Shown here: positions 4,165 to 39,061 of the stretch, in pieces | Numbering within the stretch: the first letter of the stretch is position 1 | Layout: every line of letters starts with the position of its first letter | DNA from: Escherichia phage phiWAO78-1 | Sequence record: MW331437.1 | Strand: one strand, 5' to 3' | DNA length: 44,551 bases | Notes under the pieces: generated by a model | The model's input: the letters and a program-made list of their open reading frames with translations, nothing else | Told to the model about the DNA's origin: nothing | Databases searched by the model: none | Made by a program: the position numbers and the translations under genes

Positions 4165-4195
4165 TTCTAAATTCCTTATCTCTCGTTTCGATAAC

Positions 4196-4228
4196 TGAAT
4201 AGTACCCTATTATATTGGGGTCTGCAAA
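4196..4228 (-). promoter_or_regulatory. Class-1 conserved promoter-like element, copy A (TTGCAG-N17-TACTAT with AATAG-N4-CTATT dyad)
   Basis: 33-bp element shared with copies at 6082, 15681, 37611, 39002; about 35 nt upstream of the minus-strand ATG at 4164. Confidence 0.6.
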
Positions 4229-4271: not shown

Positions 4272-5315
4272 ATGAGCTTACTTACATCCCTAATCAGCCA
4301 CCAGATATGGCTGCAACGCACCGCATCCGGCGAAGTGAAAGACCTTGCACCATTTCTTCAGGAAATGCGGGACGAAATCAAACGGCAGGTCCTGTTATTC
4401 GGTGACGACGGGCGAAGCACTGCGCGACTGAATAAACTGTTACGCGACCTTGAAGAAGCACTGGCAGGACTTACCGGTGACTGGCAAACAAAGCTGACAG
4501 AAGACCTTAAGGAACTGGCGGCATATGAAGCAGAGTGGAACGTAAAAACGCTAACGGCTAGCGTTAACGCGGAATTTGTTACACCTACCGCCGAACAGGT
4601 GTGGGCCGCTGCCGAGTTTCAACCGCTCTCATTGAGCGACAAGCCTGTCGATTTCACTAAGTTGATGTCCGGTTGGGGTGAAGCCGAAGTCGCTCGCCTT
4701 GTAACAGGCGTTAAGATGGGTTTCGTACAAGGTCAGACGACACGGCAGATTGTTAAGAATGTCGTAGGCGCGGGCGGGCTGGCTGACATCTCCGAGCGAA
4801 ACGCCGCTACAGTAATACGTACTGCGCTATCGCACGTGTCCAACGAAGCCCGCAACGAGACGTACAGGCAAAACGACGACATCATCGAGAAGTACGAATG
4901 GGTGTCAACGCTGGACAGTCGTACCAGTACGATTTGCAGAGCCAGAGACGGAATGACGTGGGAAATTGGTATGGGGCCGATGCCCCCCGCCCATCCGAAC
5001 TGTCGATCGTGCACAGCCCCGGTAATTAGCTCGGAGTTCGACTTCCTCGATAAAGGCGCGAAACGTGCAGCTAAGGGTGCGGAAGGTGGTACCCAGGTGA
5101 GCGCGGACACCGCCTATTATGAGTTCCTTAAACAACAACCGGCATGGTTTCAGGACCAGGCACTAGGGCCGGTTCGCGGTAAGATTTTCCGCAACAGCGG
5201 TATATCGCCGGAAGAGTTTCGCGTAATATCTGTAGATGGTTTCGGGAATCCGCTCACGCTTAAGCAGATGGCGGAACTCGATAAACGTGTCGCTGATTAT
5301 CTGAAAGGGGAATAA
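4272..5315 (+). CDS. Head morphogenesis protein (phage Mu F / SPP1 gp7-like minor head protein)
   Basis: Region TLDSRTSTICRARDG...PPAHPNCRSCT resembles the conserved C-terminal signature of this family; position after portal; start at ATG 4272 with GGAGGG SD (ORF open from 4215). Confidence 0.7.
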   Translation: MSLLTSLISHQIWLQRTASGEVKDLAPFLQEMRDEIKRQVLLFGDDGRSTARLNKLLRDLEEALAGLTGDWQTKLTEDLKELAAYEAEWNVKTLTASVNAEFVTPTAEQVWAAAEFQPLSLSDKPVDFTKLMSGWGEAEVARLVTGVKMGFVQGQTTRQIVKNVVGAGGLADISERNAATVIRTALSHVSNEARNETYRQNDDIIEKYEWVSTLDSRTSTICRARDGMTWEIGMGPMPPAHPNCRSCTAPVISSEFDFLDKGAKRAAKGAEGGTQVSADTAYYEFLKQQPAWFQDQALGPVRGKIFRNSGISPEEFRVISVDGFGNPLTLKQMAELDKRVADYLKGE

Positions 5316-5776
5316 TGATGGGCTTTTTCAAAGTAACCGATGTACCGTCGCGTCGTGTTGTCCAGTACGCCCGCGTGTCTGGCTCCGGTGAGAACGTTGT
5401 GTTTATTGAAGATGAAAGTGTACTTGGTACACCGGTAGACGATATGCCGTTTGCGGATAAGACCGGTATCGCGCTACCAGCGGCTGGTATGCTTTATGAG
5501 ATTCCGTATCTGGCTGATGCTGGCGACGTGTACTTCTCTGTGCAACCGAAAGACACTGAACTGGCTGACGGCAGCGCAACCATCACTGTCGAAGTTAAGG
5601 CGGGCAAAGCGCCATACGCGCTTACCTGGTACAAAGACGGCAAGGAAGTGGTAAACGCCCCGGAAGAGGCTTTGTCTCTGACGGTTAATGTAGTCGGTGA
5701 ATACTTCGTTAAAGTTACTGATGCTGATGGCGTAGAGGCAGTTAGCAAAGCGGCGAAGGTCACTAAACCGGAATAA
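5315..5776 (+). CDS. Ig-like domain-containing structural protein (putative)
   Basis: C-terminal motif YALTWYKDGKEV...GEYFVKVTD resembles immunoglobulin-like domains; start overlaps stop of upstream gene (TAATGATG). Confidence 0.45.
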   Translation: MMGFFKVTDVPSRRVVQYARVSGSGENVVFIEDESVLGTPVDDMPFADKTGIALPAAGMLYEIPYLADAGDVYFSVQPKDTELADGSATITVEVKAGKAPYALTWYKDGKEVVNAPEEALSLTVNVVGEYFVKVTDADGVEAVSKAAKVTKPE

Positions 5777-5777
5777 A

Positions 5778-5805
5778 CTGAGGCCCCGAAAGGGGCCTCA
5801 GTTTT
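5778..5805. terminator. Bidirectional rho-independent terminator (CTGAGGCCCC-GAAA-GGGGCCTCAG)
   Basis: 10-bp perfect GC-rich stem with T-runs on both strands, between convergent genes ending at 5776 and 5804. Confidence 0.75.
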
Positions 5806-6055
5806 AATACCCAGTCTCTTGGGTTAAGTTAATCTCTTTATTCCAGACGTTTCGGTCATACTTTTCACGAATCTGGCGCATACTTCTGCCGACCGCGGCG
5901 GATAGAGACGTATCCCCATCTTCTTGCGCGTCCAATTGAATCCGCCGAAGCCCAATATACGCCGAAATATCGCCGCGTAATTCGGCCTGTTCATACTCTT
6001 TTTTAAGAAAAGAACCAAGGTCCTGTACACGATGTTTTGCTGGTTTCGTAATCAT
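5804..6055 (-). CDS. Hypothetical protein (accessory cassette B)
   Basis: 83 aa ORF; ATG 6055 with GAGGAGAG SD about 25 nt downstream of conserved promoter element B. Confidence 0.45.
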   Translation of the reverse strand: MITKPAKHRVQDLGSFLKKEYEQAELRGDISAYIGLRRIQLDAQEDGDTSLSAAVGRSMRQIREKYDRNVWNKEINLTQETGY

Positions 6056-6081
6056 TTCTTCTCTCCTCTTGTTGGTGTGAA

Positions 6082-6114
6082 TGAATAGTACCCTATTATA
6101 TTGGGGTGTGCAAA
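6082..6114 (-). promoter_or_regulatory. Class-1 conserved promoter-like element, copy B
   Basis: TTTGCACACCCCAATATAATAGGGTACTATTCA on the minus strand; the best match to the family consensus. Confidence 0.6.
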
Positions 6115-6179
6115 CTATTTGTTTACGTATTCCAGTTATTCAACTGATTTGTAAATGATGGAATAAACTATTCGAATAG

Positions 6180-6208
6180 TTGACTTTTCACTAAAAATGT
6201 GCTAAGCT
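6180..6208 (+). promoter_or_regulatory. Candidate sigma70 promoter (TTGACT-N17-TAAGCT) preceded by palindrome CTATTCGAATAG
   Basis: Good -35 with 17-nt spacing and a weak -10; palindrome 6168-6179 abuts the -35. Confidence 0.3.
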
Positions 6209-6214
6209 CCACCT

Positions 6215-6412
6215 GAGCTTGTGAAGTATGAACAAGCGACCGCGGCGCGGGCAGGTAACGGAGCGGGACGTAAGTCCTGAGTGTAGTTACGCTGACGCGT
6301 TCGGAAGGGCCGTACTCTATTGCTTGTGTAAAAAGTAACTGGTTTACTGAGATTACGCCGTTTCTATGTTTAAATGATAAGGCCTAGCGCCCCGCTTTAC
6401 GGCGGGGCTTTA
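6215..6412 (+). ncRNA. Candidate small non-coding RNA or leader transcript (about 200 nt)
   Basis: Promoter-like element at 6180-6208 and intrinsic terminator at 6389-6415 bracket a region with no ORF of 60 aa or more (only a 36-codon basic ORF from 6228 lacking a clear SD). Confidence 0.25.
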
Positions 6413-6415
6413 CTT
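6389..6415 (+). terminator. Rho-independent terminator (GCCCCGC-loop-GCGGGGC + TTTACTT)
   Basis: 7-bp GC stem followed by T-rich tract, 18 nt upstream of the spanin start. Confidence 0.6.
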
Positions 6416-6432
6416 ATCGAGAAAGGAGAAAC

Positions 6433-6819
6433 ATGAATCTTAAAGCAACTGTCGTAGCGGGGGCGTGTTTCATCATCCTGGCTTACGCACACGGCCTCTA
6501 CCAGTATCGCATCGGCTGGAATGAAGGCCGGGCGAATCTCGTTTCGCAGCAACAGCAGAAAGCACAGGCTGAGTTAGCGAAGAAAACACAACGGCAGCAG
6601 CAGGACGAATCGAAGGCCGCCGCCGCTGACAACGAAGGCAAGACGAAATCAGAGGTAATTACCCGTGAAGTCGTTAAGTACATTAAAACGCCTGGCCGCA
6701 GCGTGTGCACTTTTGACCCTGAGCGCGTGCGGCTCAAGTCCCGCGCCGTCGCAAACGCCAATTCCATCCCCGGATACGACGATGATGCAGCCGCCGTGCA
6801 AACTGGCACCGCCAAGTAG
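6433..6819 (+). CDS. i-spanin (Rz-like inner-membrane spanin component)
   Basis: N-terminal transmembrane segment VVAGACFIILAYA followed by Q/K/A-rich coiled-coil-like region; a lipoprotein ORF overlaps in the +1 frame. Confidence 0.6.
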   Translation: MNLKATVVAGACFIILAYAHGLYQYRIGWNEGRANLVSQQQQKAQAELAKKTQRQQQDESKAAAADNEGKTKSEVITREVVKYIKTPGRSVCTFDPERVRLKSRAVANANSIPGYDDDAAAVQTGTAK

Positions 6820-6928
6820 CGACGCTGACGAGGATTTAGCTATCGACGTTCAGAATGCCGAATGTGCACGGCAACTGAGACTGAAAGTGTTCATGTTGCA
6901 GGATTACGTGAGGAATATTCTGGAATAG
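6665..6928 (+). CDS. o-spanin (Rz1-like outer-membrane lipoprotein), overlapping the i-spanin gene in another frame
   Basis: Lipoprotein signal MKSLSTLKRLAAACALLTLSAC with lipobox LSAC; Pro-rich mature part; GTG start with GAGGT SD 8 nt upstream; begins inside 6433-6819 and extends past it. Confidence 0.6.
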   Translation: MKSLSTLKRLAAACALLTLSACGSSPAPSQTPIPSPDTTMMQPPCKLAPPSSDADEDLAIDVQNAECARQLRLKVFMLQDYVRNILE

Positions 6929-7010
6929 TTGCCTTGCATGTTGGAATAATTTATTCTTGACATGTAAATCCGGGCGGCCCGGGTTCCAACGTCCAGGGGA
7001 CATACTGACT

Positions 7011-7712
7011 ATGAATCGTTTTTTACGTTATCCGTTCCAGGAAGAAGCTGGAGCAGAAGATAAAGCTGGCGGCGGTGACGCGCCGAAAATGTTCACCGCT
7101 GAAGAAGTTCAGGCGCTGATTGAGAAAGAAGTCGCCGGGCTTAAGGCTAATCAGGAAGCGTTACTTGCGGAGAAGAAAGAAGCCGCTCGTAAAGCAAAAG
7201 AGGCCGAAGAAGAACGGCAGCGTGCCCATCAGGAGGCGTTAAAAGCCGCTGGTAAGATGGACGAGTTCGAAAAAACGATTCGTAGCCAGTATGACCCGGT
7301 GTTAGCCGAGAAAGACGGTCGCATCTCCAAAATGGCAGAGCGTATCCTCGGCAGCGAACGTAAGGCGGTGTTAGGCTCTTTCGCGGGCGACTTTATCACC
7401 CCGGAAGCAGTAGACATTCTTGCTCCGTTCGTTAAAACTGAGTTCGAAGGCGATGATGTGGTTACTAAGTTTGTTGGCGCAGACGGCAACGTAATCACGA
7501 CTGACCCGGAACAGTTCCGCAAATATCTGCGCGAACACAAAGCGTTTTCGCATTTGATTAAAGCAAATGCAGCTTCCGGCGGCGGGGCTTCCGGTGGCAA
7601 AGGCGGCGGGGCCGCACCAGCGTTTAAAGACATGAGTGAAGCGGAGCGTTTAGCTCTGTATAAATCGAACCCTGCCGAATTTGAACGGCAACTTAAAGCC
7701 CTGAGGAAATAA
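7011..7712 (+). CDS. Scaffolding protein (putative)
   Basis: Charged, Ala/Glu/Lys-rich helical protein with Gly-rich C-terminus immediately upstream of the major capsid gene; start at ATG 7011 (ORF open from 6957). Confidence 0.55.
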   Translation: MNRFLRYPFQEEAGAEDKAGGGDAPKMFTAEEVQALIEKEVAGLKANQEALLAEKKEAARKAKEAEEERQRAHQEALKAAGKMDEFEKTIRSQYDPVLAEKDGRISKMAERILGSERKAVLGSFAGDFITPEAVDILAPFVKTEFEGDDVVTKFVGADGNVITTDPEQFRKYLREHKAFSHLIKANAASGGGASGGKGGGAAPAFKDMSEAERLALYKSNPAEFERQLKALRK

Positions 7713-7714
7713 TA

Positions 7715-8764
7715 ATGGCAATTACCACTATCGGCGATATCGTAACTGGCAACATCCCGGTCCTGGCGTCTTATATGACCGAGGACCCGGTGGAAAAAAC
7801 CGCGTTCTTCCAGTCCGGTATTCTGACCCCGACTCCGTACGCCGCTGAGATTGCTCGCGGTCCGTCCAACGTCGCTAATATTCCTTTCTGGAAAGCGATT
7901 GATACTTCTATTGAGCCTAACTACTCGAACGATGTGTATCAGGATATCGCCACCCCGCGTAATGTGCAAACCGGCGAGATGATGGCCCGTGTTGCGTACA
8001 TGAACGAAGGTTTCGGCCAGGCGGATTTGACTGTCGAACTGACCAGCCAGAACCCGCTGCAATCCGTAGCGTCCCGTCTGGATAACTTCTGGCAACGTCA
8101 GGCACAACGCCGTCTGATTGCTACCGCGCTCGGTCTGTACAACGACAACGTAGCCGCTACCGATGCTTACCACGAGAAGGATGACATGGTAGTGGACGTG
8201 TCGGCTACTTTGGGCTTCGACGCAGGTGCGTTCATCGACGCCACCCAGACTATGGGTGATGCTCTGATGGGTAATGGCGGTGAAGTGCTGGGCGCTATCG
8301 CGATGCACAGCTTCGTTTATGCGCAGGCACGTAAGCAGCAGCTTATTGACTTCATCAAAGACGCTGACAACGACACCCTGTTTGCCACCTACCAGGGCTA
8401 CCGTGTGATTGTCGACGACAGCATGACCGTAGTCGGTACCGGCGGCAGCCGCAAGTTCATCTCCATCATCTTCGGCAACGGCGCTATTGGTTACGGAGAA
8501 GGCAACCCATCCAACCCGCTGGAATACGAGCGTGAAGCGTCTCGCGGTAACGGTGGTGGCGTTGAAACCCTGTGGACCCGTAAGACCTGGTTGCTGCATC
8601 CGCTGGGCTACAGCTTCACCAGCACGGTAATCACCGGCAACGGCACCGAGACTACCCCGCGCTCTGCTTCATGGCAGGACCTGGCGAACGCCTCCAACTG
8701 GAACCGCGTTGTTGACCGTAAGCACGTACCAATCGCCTTCCTGGTAACTGGTGTAGGGTCTTAA
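7715..8764 (+). CDS. Major capsid protein
   Basis: 349 aa ORF with GAGGAAA SD following scaffold and followed by a strong terminator; position and size typical. Confidence 0.75.
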   Translation: MAITTIGDIVTGNIPVLASYMTEDPVEKTAFFQSGILTPTPYAAEIARGPSNVANIPFWKAIDTSIEPNYSNDVYQDIATPRNVQTGEMMARVAYMNEGFGQADLTVELTSQNPLQSVASRLDNFWQRQAQRRLIATALGLYNDNVAATDAYHEKDDMVVDVSATLGFDAGAFIDATQTMGDALMGNGGEVLGAIAMHSFVYAQARKQQLIDFIKDADNDTLFATYQGYRVIVDDSMTVVGTGGSRKFISIIFGNGAIGYGEGNPSNPLEYEREASRGNGGGVETLWTRKTWLLHPLGYSFTSTVITGNGTETTPRSASWQDLANASNWNRVVDRKHVPIAFLVTGVGS

Positions 8765-8780
8765 GGTTAAGATATAATCG

Positions 8781-8808
8781 AGAGGGACTTCGGTCCCTCT
8801 TTTCATTT
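8781..8808 (+). terminator. Rho-independent terminator (AGAGGGAC-TTCG-GTCCCTCT + TTTCATTT)
   Basis: 8-bp stem with tetraloop and T-run directly after the capsid gene. Confidence 0.7.
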
Positions 8809-15653: not shown

Positions 15654-15680
15654 TTTAAACCCCTTCGTTGTCGGTGTAAG

Positions 15681-15713
15681 TGAATAGTACCCTATTATAT
15701 TGGGGCGCGCAAG
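15681..15713 (-). promoter_or_regulatory. Class-1 conserved promoter-like element, copy C
   Basis: CTTGCGCGCCCCAATATAATAGGGTACTATTCA on the minus strand, about 30 nt upstream of ATG 15653. Confidence 0.6.
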
Positions 15714-37237: not shown

Positions 37238-37517
37238 ACATAATTGCACCTATTGACATTATGAAAATCTTCGTTTAAGGTGCTTCTATATCTTAGTTAC
37301 TTTGATTCTTGTTCACCTTGTAAAACCCGCCGAAAACGAGCGCTCAACGCGAAGTGTTAGGCGGCAGTTTACTGAACATGAGAATTATCGTAACTTTCCT
37401 TCCTAAGTATCTCCGGTTGCCCTGGGCAAGCTCTATTCTCATCGGCAGCATACCTCTTAAGTATCTGATTTTCTTAATGTGCCGTAGATTCGCAACCGTA
37501 AAAATGTAACGATTATC

Positions 37518-37541
37518 GGGCAGGCTTAATGCCTGCCCTTT
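37518..37541 (+). terminator. Terminator-like hairpin (GGGCAGGC-TTAAT-GCCTGCCC + TTT)
   Basis: 8-bp perfect stem in a roughly 450-bp region without convincing ORFs. Confidence 0.35.
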
Positions 37542-37610
37542 AGTTACCAAGTAATAAGAATAAAGGCACGACCCTCCCTAAAGAATCACAACGGCAACGT
37601 AACTATTCTC

Positions 37611-37643
37611 TTGCACACCCCAACATAATAGGATACTATTCAC
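37611..37643 (+). promoter_or_regulatory. Class-1 conserved promoter-like element, copy D
   Basis: TTGCACACCCCAACATAATAGGATACTATTCAC on the plus strand about 30 nt upstream of the first gene of the rightward small-ORF array. Confidence 0.6.
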
Positions 37644-39001: not shown

Positions 39002-39034
39002 CTTGCCACTGGGATAGAATAGGCTACTATTCAT
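39002..39034 (+). promoter_or_regulatory. Class-1 conserved promoter-like element, copy E (diverged)
   Basis: CTTGCCACTGGGATAGAATAGGCTACTATTCAT keeps TTGCC, the AATAG-N4-CTATT dyad and TACTATTCA; 27 nt upstream of ATG 39062. Confidence 0.45.
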
Positions 39035-39061
39035 TTACACAGACGAGAGGAGAGACAGAGG

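Follow-up and report, generated by a model that had tools for sequence, protein, structure and literature searches.

The genome of Escherichia phage phiWAO78-1 (sequence record MW331437.1) carries, in front of its spanin genes, a conserved non-coding unit that is probably the promoter and the 218-nucleotide (nt) untranslated leader, or 5′ untranslated region (5′ UTR), of the spanin-scaffold-capsid transcription unit in Kagunavirus. The record, 44,551 nt in length, was analysed as a whole and is referred to here as the window; it is an essentially complete genome of a Kagunavirus (Guernseyvirinae; virulent siphoviruses of E. coli). Comparison of homologues shows that the unit is conserved and non-coding, that it has two covarying structured domains on the plus strand, and that the read-through form of the second domain, P3, is under selection. 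The unit sits in a gap of 377 bp (6056–6432) between the start of a minus-strand gene and the i-spanin ATG at 6433. A preliminary description, made from the sequence alone, had placed a promoter-to-terminator unit at 6168–6415 and read it as a small RNA (sRNA) or as a leader or attenuator. The conserved extent exceeds this interval, with upstream repeats that begin at 6128 and RNA structure that reaches 6440, inside the spanin gene. The parts of the unit are the following.

6128–6179, plus strand: putative upstream regulatory region, with TATTCCAGTTATTC at 6128–6141, GGAATAAACTATTC at 6160–6173 and the palindrome ACTATTCGAATAGT at 6167–6180
6180–6208, plus strand: predicted sigma-70-type promoter (from sequence and conserved geometry), with the start predicted near G6215/A6216
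6217–6237, plus strand: P1 hairpin (6217–6222/6232–6237), GCTTGT/ACAAGC with a 9-nt loop, from folding; it begins 2–3 nt past the predicted start
6240–6304, plus strand: P2 hairpin, 65 nt, from folding and covariation
6240–6242/6302–6304, plus strand: P2a
6244–6249/6296–6301, plus strand: P2b
6252–6259/6286–6294, plus strand: P2c
6260–6263 (GGAG)/6280–6285 (AGTGTA), plus strand: purine-rich internal loop of P2
6264–6269/6274–6279, plus strand: P2d, the apical stem, with a GTAA loop
6300–6322, plus strand: conserved, mostly unpaired segment, recognized by near-invariance, made up of TTCGGAAGGGCC (6300–6311; its first five bases close P2) and TCTATTG (6316–6322)
6350–6440, plus strand: P3, a long imperfect hairpin, from independent folds, covariance model R2 and compensatory changes
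6350–6354/6436–6440, plus strand: P3 helix H0
6360–6365/6427–6432, plus strand: P3 helix H1
6369–6371/6421–6423, plus strand: P3 helix H2
6375–6381/6413–6419, plus strand: P3 helix H3
6385–6387/6410–6412, plus strand: P3 helix T-ext, 3 bp
6389–6396/6401–6408, plus strand: P3 apical stem, the terminator of the preliminary description
6409–6418, plus strand: U-rich tail TTTACTTATC, a possible leaky intrinsic terminator in Kagunavirus, from a terminator scan

Almost the whole of the 377-bp gap has a match in 176 GenBank phages. Positions 6200–6432 show 95–99% identity in about 180 GenBank phages, while the adjoining minus-strand gene is swapped for unrelated genes. About 180 GenBank phages of Kagunavirus type and about 270 of Jerseyvirus type retain the promoter geometry, the hairpin and the intervening sequence. 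The Jerseyviruses, which are Salmonella phages, have a diverged homologue at the same position, from the Hoc-like gene to the spanin gene, and no minus-strand gene. The region is among the best-conserved stretches of its neighbourhood, and the expectation of the preliminary description that it be conserved in related phages is thus borne out. The 1.2 kb around the leader unit have 95% identity to Kagunavirus NRG857CP3 and 92–94% identity to dozens of E. coli phages.

In an alignment of 24 distinct Kagunavirus-type sequences, nucleotide diversity is 0.055 in the promoter, 0.044 in 6213–6326, 0.039 in 6327–6386 and 0.035 in the hairpin. Third codon positions of the neighbouring genes show 0.19 (i-spanin), 0.16 (scaffold) and 0.25 (capsid). 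The diversity of the unit is 4- to 6-fold under that of these synonymous sites, and the whole unit is about as constrained as codon positions 1 and 2 of the capsid gene. These values indicate strong purifying selection. It also lacks a substantial open reading frame (ORF), as had been claimed: the only two on the plus strand inside it encode 36 amino acids (aa; 6228–6338) and 20 aa (6374–6436), and the minus strand has no ORF of at least 20 aa in 6160–6396.

The 5′ domain consists of P1, P2 and the conserved tract that follows them. Sequences from Kagunavirus, from Jerseyvirus and from the second copies described below fold independently into one architecture, with stems that differ. P1 is replaced by a shorter ACGCT-TTC-AGCGT hairpin in Jerseyvirus and by GCTTGTGA...TCGCAAGC in L025 and the second copies, and it is 100% paired in the model alignments. 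In a MAFFT alignment of 21 diverse sequences, 90.9% of the cells of the 5′ domain are paired, as opposed to 31–45% when partners are slid; double-change cells number 55 versus 3–11, and there are nine compensatory pairs. Among 54 matches to a covariance model of the domain, R1, pairing rises to 93.5% with 13 compensatory pairs, in an alignment that leans towards the model. At 6246/6299, for example, the C-G of the window is replaced by U-A in Jerseyvirus and by A-U in the second copies. P2b has two conserved G-U pairs at its base; read from the opposite strand they would become A-C, which places the structure on the plus strand. R1 has exactly one match in the window (6213–6326, 137 bits) and one match for each Kagunavirus or Jerseyvirus locus that covers the region.

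The tract TTCGGAAGGGCC...TCTATTG is invariant or nearly so in Kagunavirus, Jerseyvirus and the second copies, and CGGAAGGG(C/T)CG is shared even by the otherwise unrelated leaders of L052–L056. A boxA-like reading of CTCTATT was rejected as the GCTC part varies (CTATATT, CTATACT). An ops-like reading of GTAGCG in the P2 loop was also abandoned; this motif is found in some lineages only.

The evidence for P3 comes from folds that span the last 95 nt of the leader and the beginning of the spanin gene. Made independently for Kagunavirus and for Jerseyvirus, they give identical nested P3 helices. The covariance model R2, built from Kagunavirus sequences only, recovers the Jerseyvirus homologues, and P3 is present in all Kagunavirus and Jerseyvirus loci. 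On the R2 alignment, which leans towards the model, 96.9% of cells are paired versus 41–53% with slid partners, and 12 pairs are compensatory. Changes were also checked by hand in the independent folds; these are U-A to A-U in H1, and G-C to U-A and A-U to C-G in H3. The 3′ arm holds the spanin Shine-Dalgarno sequence (6424–6428) and the ATG (6433), both in small loops. Within Kagunavirus, an A/G polymorphism of the Shine-Dalgarno sequence (AGGAG/AGGGG) still pairs with U6365. The covariation analysis that the preliminary description had suggested yields compensatory changes that back both the 5′ domain and P3.

The high conservation of what looks like a linker between the 5′ domain and the terminator hairpin is explained by P3, since the linker is its 5′ arm. 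The location of the other arm bears on the readings of the preliminary description. H0, H1 and the distal half of H3 use positions 6413–6440, which lie 3′ of any terminated end, and these helices can therefore form only in read-through RNA. As these helices include covarying pairs, selection has maintained the structure of the read-through transcript.

The hairpin reported earlier, GCCCCGCT-TTAC-GGCGGGGC at 6389–6408 with the tail TTTACTTATC, is present and is the best plus-strand terminator-like match in a scan of 4500–8500. It forms the apical stem of P3, with eight pairs (seven of them G-C), a 4-nt loop and a calculated energy of −16 kcal/mol; across homologues the range is −12 to −18 kcal/mol, with compensatory changes. 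The bases of its tail also pair with 6375–6387 inside P3. The U-tract is TTTACTTA in Kagunavirus, with 5/8 U, and is listed by the scan; in Jerseyvirus it is TTAGCGTA, with 3/8 U, and is not listed. L052–L064 have another hairpin in the same place, 24–25 nt before the spanin ATG, which has no U-run. From these tails we would expect partial termination in Kagunavirus and, in Jerseyvirus, little or none. A riboswitch-type alternative pairing was considered and rejected, as the consensus fold contains only P2 and the hairpin, and anti-terminator pairings found by eye are not shared by Kagunavirus and Jerseyvirus. When the first 35 nt of the spanin gene are included in the fold, the apical 5′ arm GCGCCCCGC (6389–6397) alternatively pairs with GCGGGGGCG (6457–6465). 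With 27–32 pairs and small loops, P3 is of the size expected of an RNase III substrate (about 20 bp or more of imperfect double-stranded RNA), as is P2 with 23 pairs, and a candidate RNase III site is thus predicted.

Upstream of the RNA, the proposed promoter elements TTGACT (6180–6185) and TAAGCT (6203–6208) are found with a spacer of 17 nt, and they are flanked as described by the palindrome CTATTCGAATAG (6168–6179), which can be extended to ACTATTCGAATAGT (6167–6180) and is centred at about −41.5 relative to the predicted start. The −35 hexamer matches the consensus at 5/6 positions. The −10 hexamer matches TATAAT at 3/6 and keeps the key A2 and T6; a TG at 6200–6201, two bases upstream of TAAGCT, makes it an extended −10. 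The same geometry is seen in Jerseyvirus (TAGACT-N17-TGtTACGCT) and in L052–L056 (TGGACT-N17-TGaTAACCT), that is, in three lineages, and the same site in phi135 has been marked as a promoter by other annotators. Near-consensus sigma-70 promoters are numerous in the window.

The upstream region is conserved with Jerseyvirus and also with more distant relatives that have an unrelated leader RNA (local alignment z about 12), and its exact motifs are rare within the window. As the TATTCC/GGAATA repeats upstream of the promoter are kept even where the leader RNA differs, they may be candidate sites for a regulator. The sequence GGAATAAnyTATTC occurs exactly twice in the genome, once upstream of the leader promoter (within 6128–6173) and once between the o-spanin and scaffold genes (6943–6956), where it adjoins a small hairpin, CCGGGCGGCCCGG (6970–6982). 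A candidate promoter in this second location, with TTGACA at 6957–6962 before the scaffold gene, was discarded, as it has no −10 and is not kept in Ent1. It should also be pointed out that a near-repeat of the −10 extends across the predicted start (6203–6220): TAAGCT-ccacc-TGAGCT in the window and TACGCT-acc-TACGCT in Jerseyvirus (L003, about 1420–1440). This repetition may represent a promoter-proximal pause element that depends on sigma, or it may simply belong to the P1 stem.

A second copy of the promoter (TTGACTTTT...TGCTAAGCT), together with P1, P2 and GGAAGGGCC...TCTATTG, is carried by no fewer than 20 Kagunaviruses in GenBank and by no fewer than 13 contigs in IMG/VR. It lies about 11 kb upstream, at the early-rightward promoter in the divergent early control region, beside a helix-turn-helix gene. 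The sequence 3′ of the second copy is no longer that of the spanin leader; it contains another GC-rich hairpin, which lacks a U-run, as well as a TTGCAC-N17-TACTAT promoter and a cluster of small rightward genes. An R1 search of the window found no second copy of the module. The corresponding slot of the window, 37254–37545 at the head of the early rightward genes, holds another ORF-free promoter-to-hairpin unit, which consists of TTGACA-N17-TAAGGT, about 250 nt, and then GGGCAGGC-TTAA-TGCCTGCCC followed by TTTAGTT. This unit folds far better than shuffled sequences (z = −3.8), and its 3′ two-thirds are almost identical in Jerseyviruses SE2 and SP-101; many Kagunaviruses carry the second copy of the spanin-leader module in its place. 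Its motifs look similar by eye to those of the spanin leader, but local alignment against shuffles gives z <2, and it was not accepted as a diverged paralogue.

In relatives whose capsid identity is 83–90%, the upstream repeats and the promoter geometry persist (z about 12), and the leader before their spanin gene is unrelated in sequence, also GC-rich and structured. The leaders of L052–L064 were likewise rejected as homologues; homology holds for their upstream regions (z about 12), but the RNA has no significant similarity past CGGAAGGG(C/T)CGAG, and R1 misses them. As judged from these comparisons, the slot defined by a promoter, a structured leader and a hairpin is conserved more deeply than any single RNA sequence, and the promoter with the 5′ domain is a portable module. 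Since the slot is conserved more deeply than its sequence, and since the 5′ domain travels with the promoter, a generic action in cis fits better than a sequence-specific action in trans.

The Guernseyvirinae (Kagunavirus and Jerseyvirus) are widely isolated phages of E. coli and Salmonella that rely on the host RNA polymerase during the whole infection, and no RNA polymerase gene is annotated in the annotated relatives of the window. In the sequence of events proposed, the host sigma-70 RNA polymerase would initiate near 6215. The first 95 nt or so would fold into P1 and P2, followed by the conserved single-stranded GGAAGGGCC...TCTATTG, and the last 90 nt or so into the single long hairpin P3, with the spanin ribosome-binding site in its 3′ arm. 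The tip of P3 and the U-rich run would act as a leaky terminator or attenuator in Kagunavirus; most functional transcripts would pass through P3 into the spanin gene, and an RNA of about 200 nt that ends at 6409–6416 may build up as a by-product. The 5′ domain may act in cis on its own transcript or polymerase, by protection of the 5′-end, by making elongation resistant to downstream stops, or both. At the spanin start, P3 would tune the relative levels of termination, processing and translation.

Several observations weigh against this interpretation. The −10 hexamer is weak, and because TAAGCT fits TATAAT at just 3/6 positions the promoter is absent from the list given by a consensus scan. 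Taken as a class, promoter-like and terminator-like matches occur no more often than they do in shuffled sequence; motifs alone are thus weak proof, and the case is built on comparison. The alignments to R1 (54 matches) and R2 are fitted to models and so are biased towards the structures. The calculated cost of opening the spanin ribosome-binding site, about 8 kcal/mol, is similar to that of the capsid gene and below that of the scaffold gene. With such an ordinary opening cost P3 is not an obvious translational lock, and strong occlusion of the ribosome-binding site was dropped as a proposal. The sequence of the 5′ domain, loops and junctions included, is kept beyond the needs of a generic stabilizing hairpin, which hints at a specific partner. 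At the second-copy locus, a hairpin and, after it, another promoter lie 3′ of the module, an arrangement that also suits a self-contained RNA gene. In addition, the start site, the 3′-ends and the read-through fraction are deduced from sequence.

The layout of the second copies, with a strong hairpin and then a separate promoter for the genes that follow, also speaks for a stand-alone, trans-acting sRNA of about 200 nt, from 6215 to 6409–6416, with ends protected by hairpins and acting on host or phage targets via unpaired tracts (GGAAGGGCC, TCTATTG and the AU-rich linker). Such an RNA would have its own promoter and a 5′ hairpin that begins at +2/+3; the Kagunavirus hairpin with its U-run is listed as terminator-like, and purifying selection acts on the whole unit, unpaired tracts included. 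However, the covarying helices H1, H0 and distal H3 need bases beyond the termination point, and a large part of the linker conservation is accounted for by the 5′ arm of P3. Jerseyvirus has lost the U-tract (3/8 U), no U-tract follows the hairpins of the second copies or of L052–L064, and the Kagunavirus tail is short and interrupted, not a long U tail as in Hfq-dependent sRNAs. No extended complementarity to the rest of the phage genome was seen. A trans-acting sRNA thus seems unlikely. Of the two readings offered in the preliminary description, the leader or attenuator is supported by the pairing of P3 beyond the terminated end, and nothing specific was found for a discrete sRNA of about 200 nt. 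The view that the unit is conserved, transcribed and without coding function is supported as well.

A processive antitermination leader is a sub-case of the leader interpretation, and we regard it as a doubtful one, of about the same standing as the sRNA. Here the nascent P1-P2 RNA would stay on its polymerase, either without a factor (put-like) or with one (nut/qut-like), and the polymerase would pass P3, the terminator-like site after the capsid gene (8780–8801) and later stops. A terminator-like hairpin does follow the element, more terminator-like sites are found further down the operon, and loops and junctions are conserved, as expected of a specific contact between RNA and polymerase or RNA and protein. 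Phage HK022 has stem-loop antiterminator RNAs, putL and putR, two per genome (PMC9378689). The likeness to these is in the two adjacent stem-loops directly after the start (here at +2/+3), in the two copies, duplicated with the promoter, that head long rightward operons in many Kagunaviruses, and in the fact that no dedicated protein is evident (PMC9378689). The likeness is architectural only. The element here is larger (about 90 nt versus about 70 nt), it is single copy in the window, the phage is virulent and not lambdoid, and no sequence similarity was detected; R1 has no match at E ≤10 in the complete HK022 genome, and there is no related Rfam family. No Q-like or N-like protein is annotated in the annotated relatives. 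Moreover, distant relatives keep the promoter region with unrelated leaders, for which a generic role fits better than a precise contact with RNA polymerase. Somewhat less probable still is the more specific proposal that P1-P2 represent a new class of cis-acting RNA that modifies the host RNA polymerase, put-like in action and unrelated to HK022 put. In that case the promoter-coupled P1-P2 would head one or two long operons, and transcripts would pass P3 and later terminators without a phage protein.

An element that functions at the DNA level, either a transcription-activated replication origin such as the T7 primary origin and T4 oriF or a protein-binding array, is very improbable. The phage does have a T7-like replication module (DNA polymerase, helicase-primase, Gp2.5-like single-stranded DNA-binding protein and exonuclease in annotated relatives), the unit combines a promoter with a GC-rich region (0.58) and an AT-rich region (0.33), and the second copy lies in a divergent early control region. 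But the G-U pairs in P2b and U-G in P3 are A-C mismatches on the other strand, and such strand-specific covariation fits RNA; P3 is anchored on the spanin ribosome-binding site, and no origin-type repeats were found inside the unit. Finally, a small protein gene in the 36-codon ORF at 6228–6338 can be dismissed: it is a coding sequence in the records of Bas70 and others and is intact in frame and length in 22 of 41 distinct variants, but it has no Shine-Dalgarno sequence at usable spacing, its ATG, located in the P1 loop, is found neither in L025 nor in any Jerseyvirus copy, the frame is broken by 1-nt indels in L039, L082, L020 and L017, and substitutions within it track base-pairing and not codon position.

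The leader proposed here can be compared with known phage and bacterial leaders. In lambda, the N leader runs from pL through nutL and an RNase III-sensitive hairpin to the N start, with about 200 nt untranslated. Both leaders are about 200 nt long, and in each an RNA element near the promoter precedes a long imperfect hairpin placed directly at the first gene's ribosome-binding site. They differ in that the present leader has no recognizable boxA/boxB (the boxA-like CTCTATT is not conserved) and no annotated N-like protein, that the calculated occlusion of the spanin start is modest, and that the RNase III site is only a candidate. The lambda late leader, pR′-6S RNA-tR′, is similar in its constitutive-looking sigma-70 promoter, about 200 nt without an ORF, terminator-like hairpin, and lysis and head genes. 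Here, however, the structure covaries, the hairpin extends into the ribosome-binding site, the U-tract varies among homologues, no gene is annotated as Q-like, and holin and endolysin are elsewhere. Stabilizing 5′ UTRs, such as the E. coli ompA leader and the T7 early leader (R0.3 RNase III site), resemble the unit in the hairpin at the extreme 5′-end, the AU-rich middle and the structure beside the ribosome-binding site. The resemblance also takes in the non-homologous structured leaders that fill the same slot in relatives; a difference is that the sequence of the 5′ domain is conserved here far past the needs of a protective hairpin.

Structured phage leaders of such a layout are already known; the RNA studied here has no Rfam family and is unannotated or mis-annotated in public records. 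A search of the whole window with Rfam 15 gave 0 matches at gathering thresholds, and at E ≤10 the region shows chance-level matches only, the best being to the hairpin alone on the minus strand (17.9 bits versus a threshold of 35). Rfam also has nothing at the element in the Jerseyvirus and second-copy variants, and ARAGORN finds no tRNA or tmRNA in the window. In GenBank, the unit is left blank, is given as a hypothetical protein of 36 aa (Bas70 and others), or has a promoter or terminator only. A scan of genome contigs with a degenerate pattern was too loose and uninformative, with chance matches in high-GC genomes. No description of the RNA was found in the searchable literature, and nothing usable on transcription in Jerseyvirus or Guernseyvirinae or on phage MB78. 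A time-course RNA-seq study of a Kagunavirus, vB_Eco_K1B4, is at gene level only, without start sites or non-coding RNA (PMC12645636).

A ‘tRNA-Ser’ in GenBank records of several Jerseyviruses was considered and set aside, as it is on the opposite strand, over the terminator of the Hoc gene and outside the element. It is an ARAGORN call on the minus strand (L003 1281–1359 and L006 772–849; Jerseyvirus Ent1 and wast) whose span overlaps both the end of the Hoc-like gene and that gene's terminator hairpin. The close relative blauehaus lacks it, and the call is probably spurious.

In annotated relatives the genes run in the order portal, head morphogenesis, Hoc-like decoration protein, short accessory gene on the minus strand, i-spanin (Rz-like), o-spanin, scaffold and major capsid; the holin and endolysin genes are located elsewhere in the genome. 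The neighbouring features in the window are listed below.

5804–6055, minus strand: accessory gene, 83 aa, from the ORF list
6085–6113, minus strand: putative divergent promoter TTGCAC-N17-TACTAT for this accessory gene, from sequence, with its function inferred
6433–6819, plus strand: i-spanin (Rz-like), the first gene 3′ of the leader, from the ORF list and homologue annotation in Bas70, XY2 and Ent1
6665–6928, plus strand: o-spanin, embedded, from the ORF list and homologue annotation
7011–7712, plus strand: scaffold, from the ORF list and homologue annotation
7715–8764, plus strand: major capsid, from the ORF list and homologue annotation

No Pfam family matches the 83-aa accessory gene. 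It stands at a swap site, which in relatives holds a 67-aa gene or a 173-aa gene annotated as ‘sliding clamp’ and in Jerseyviruses is empty. The divergent promoter is outside the leader RNA and within the same intergenic control region, and it is one of a five-copy repeat family in the window. This family is a 32–45-nt element found leftward at 4183–4227, 6069–6113 and 15668–15712, and rightward at 37611–37642 and 39014–39055. It reads as a TTGCAC-N17-TACTAT promoter with an almost invariant spacer (ACCCCAAtATAATAGGgTAC). Four copies precede correctly oriented genes; the copy at 4183–4227 faces back into the end of the portal gene and is unexplained.

To our knowledge, the timing and maintenance of late-gene expression in Guernseyvirinae are essentially unstudied. 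The element described is the best-conserved non-coding feature beside the genes for the most abundant virion proteins, and its definition corrects the annotation of these genomes. It offers a compact handle on late-gene control, with two domains open to compensatory mutation, and it is a candidate portable promoter-plus-leader module for phage engineering. We know of a single family of protein-independent antiterminator RNAs; if the 5′ domain does act on RNA polymerase, it would be a second, unrelated example.

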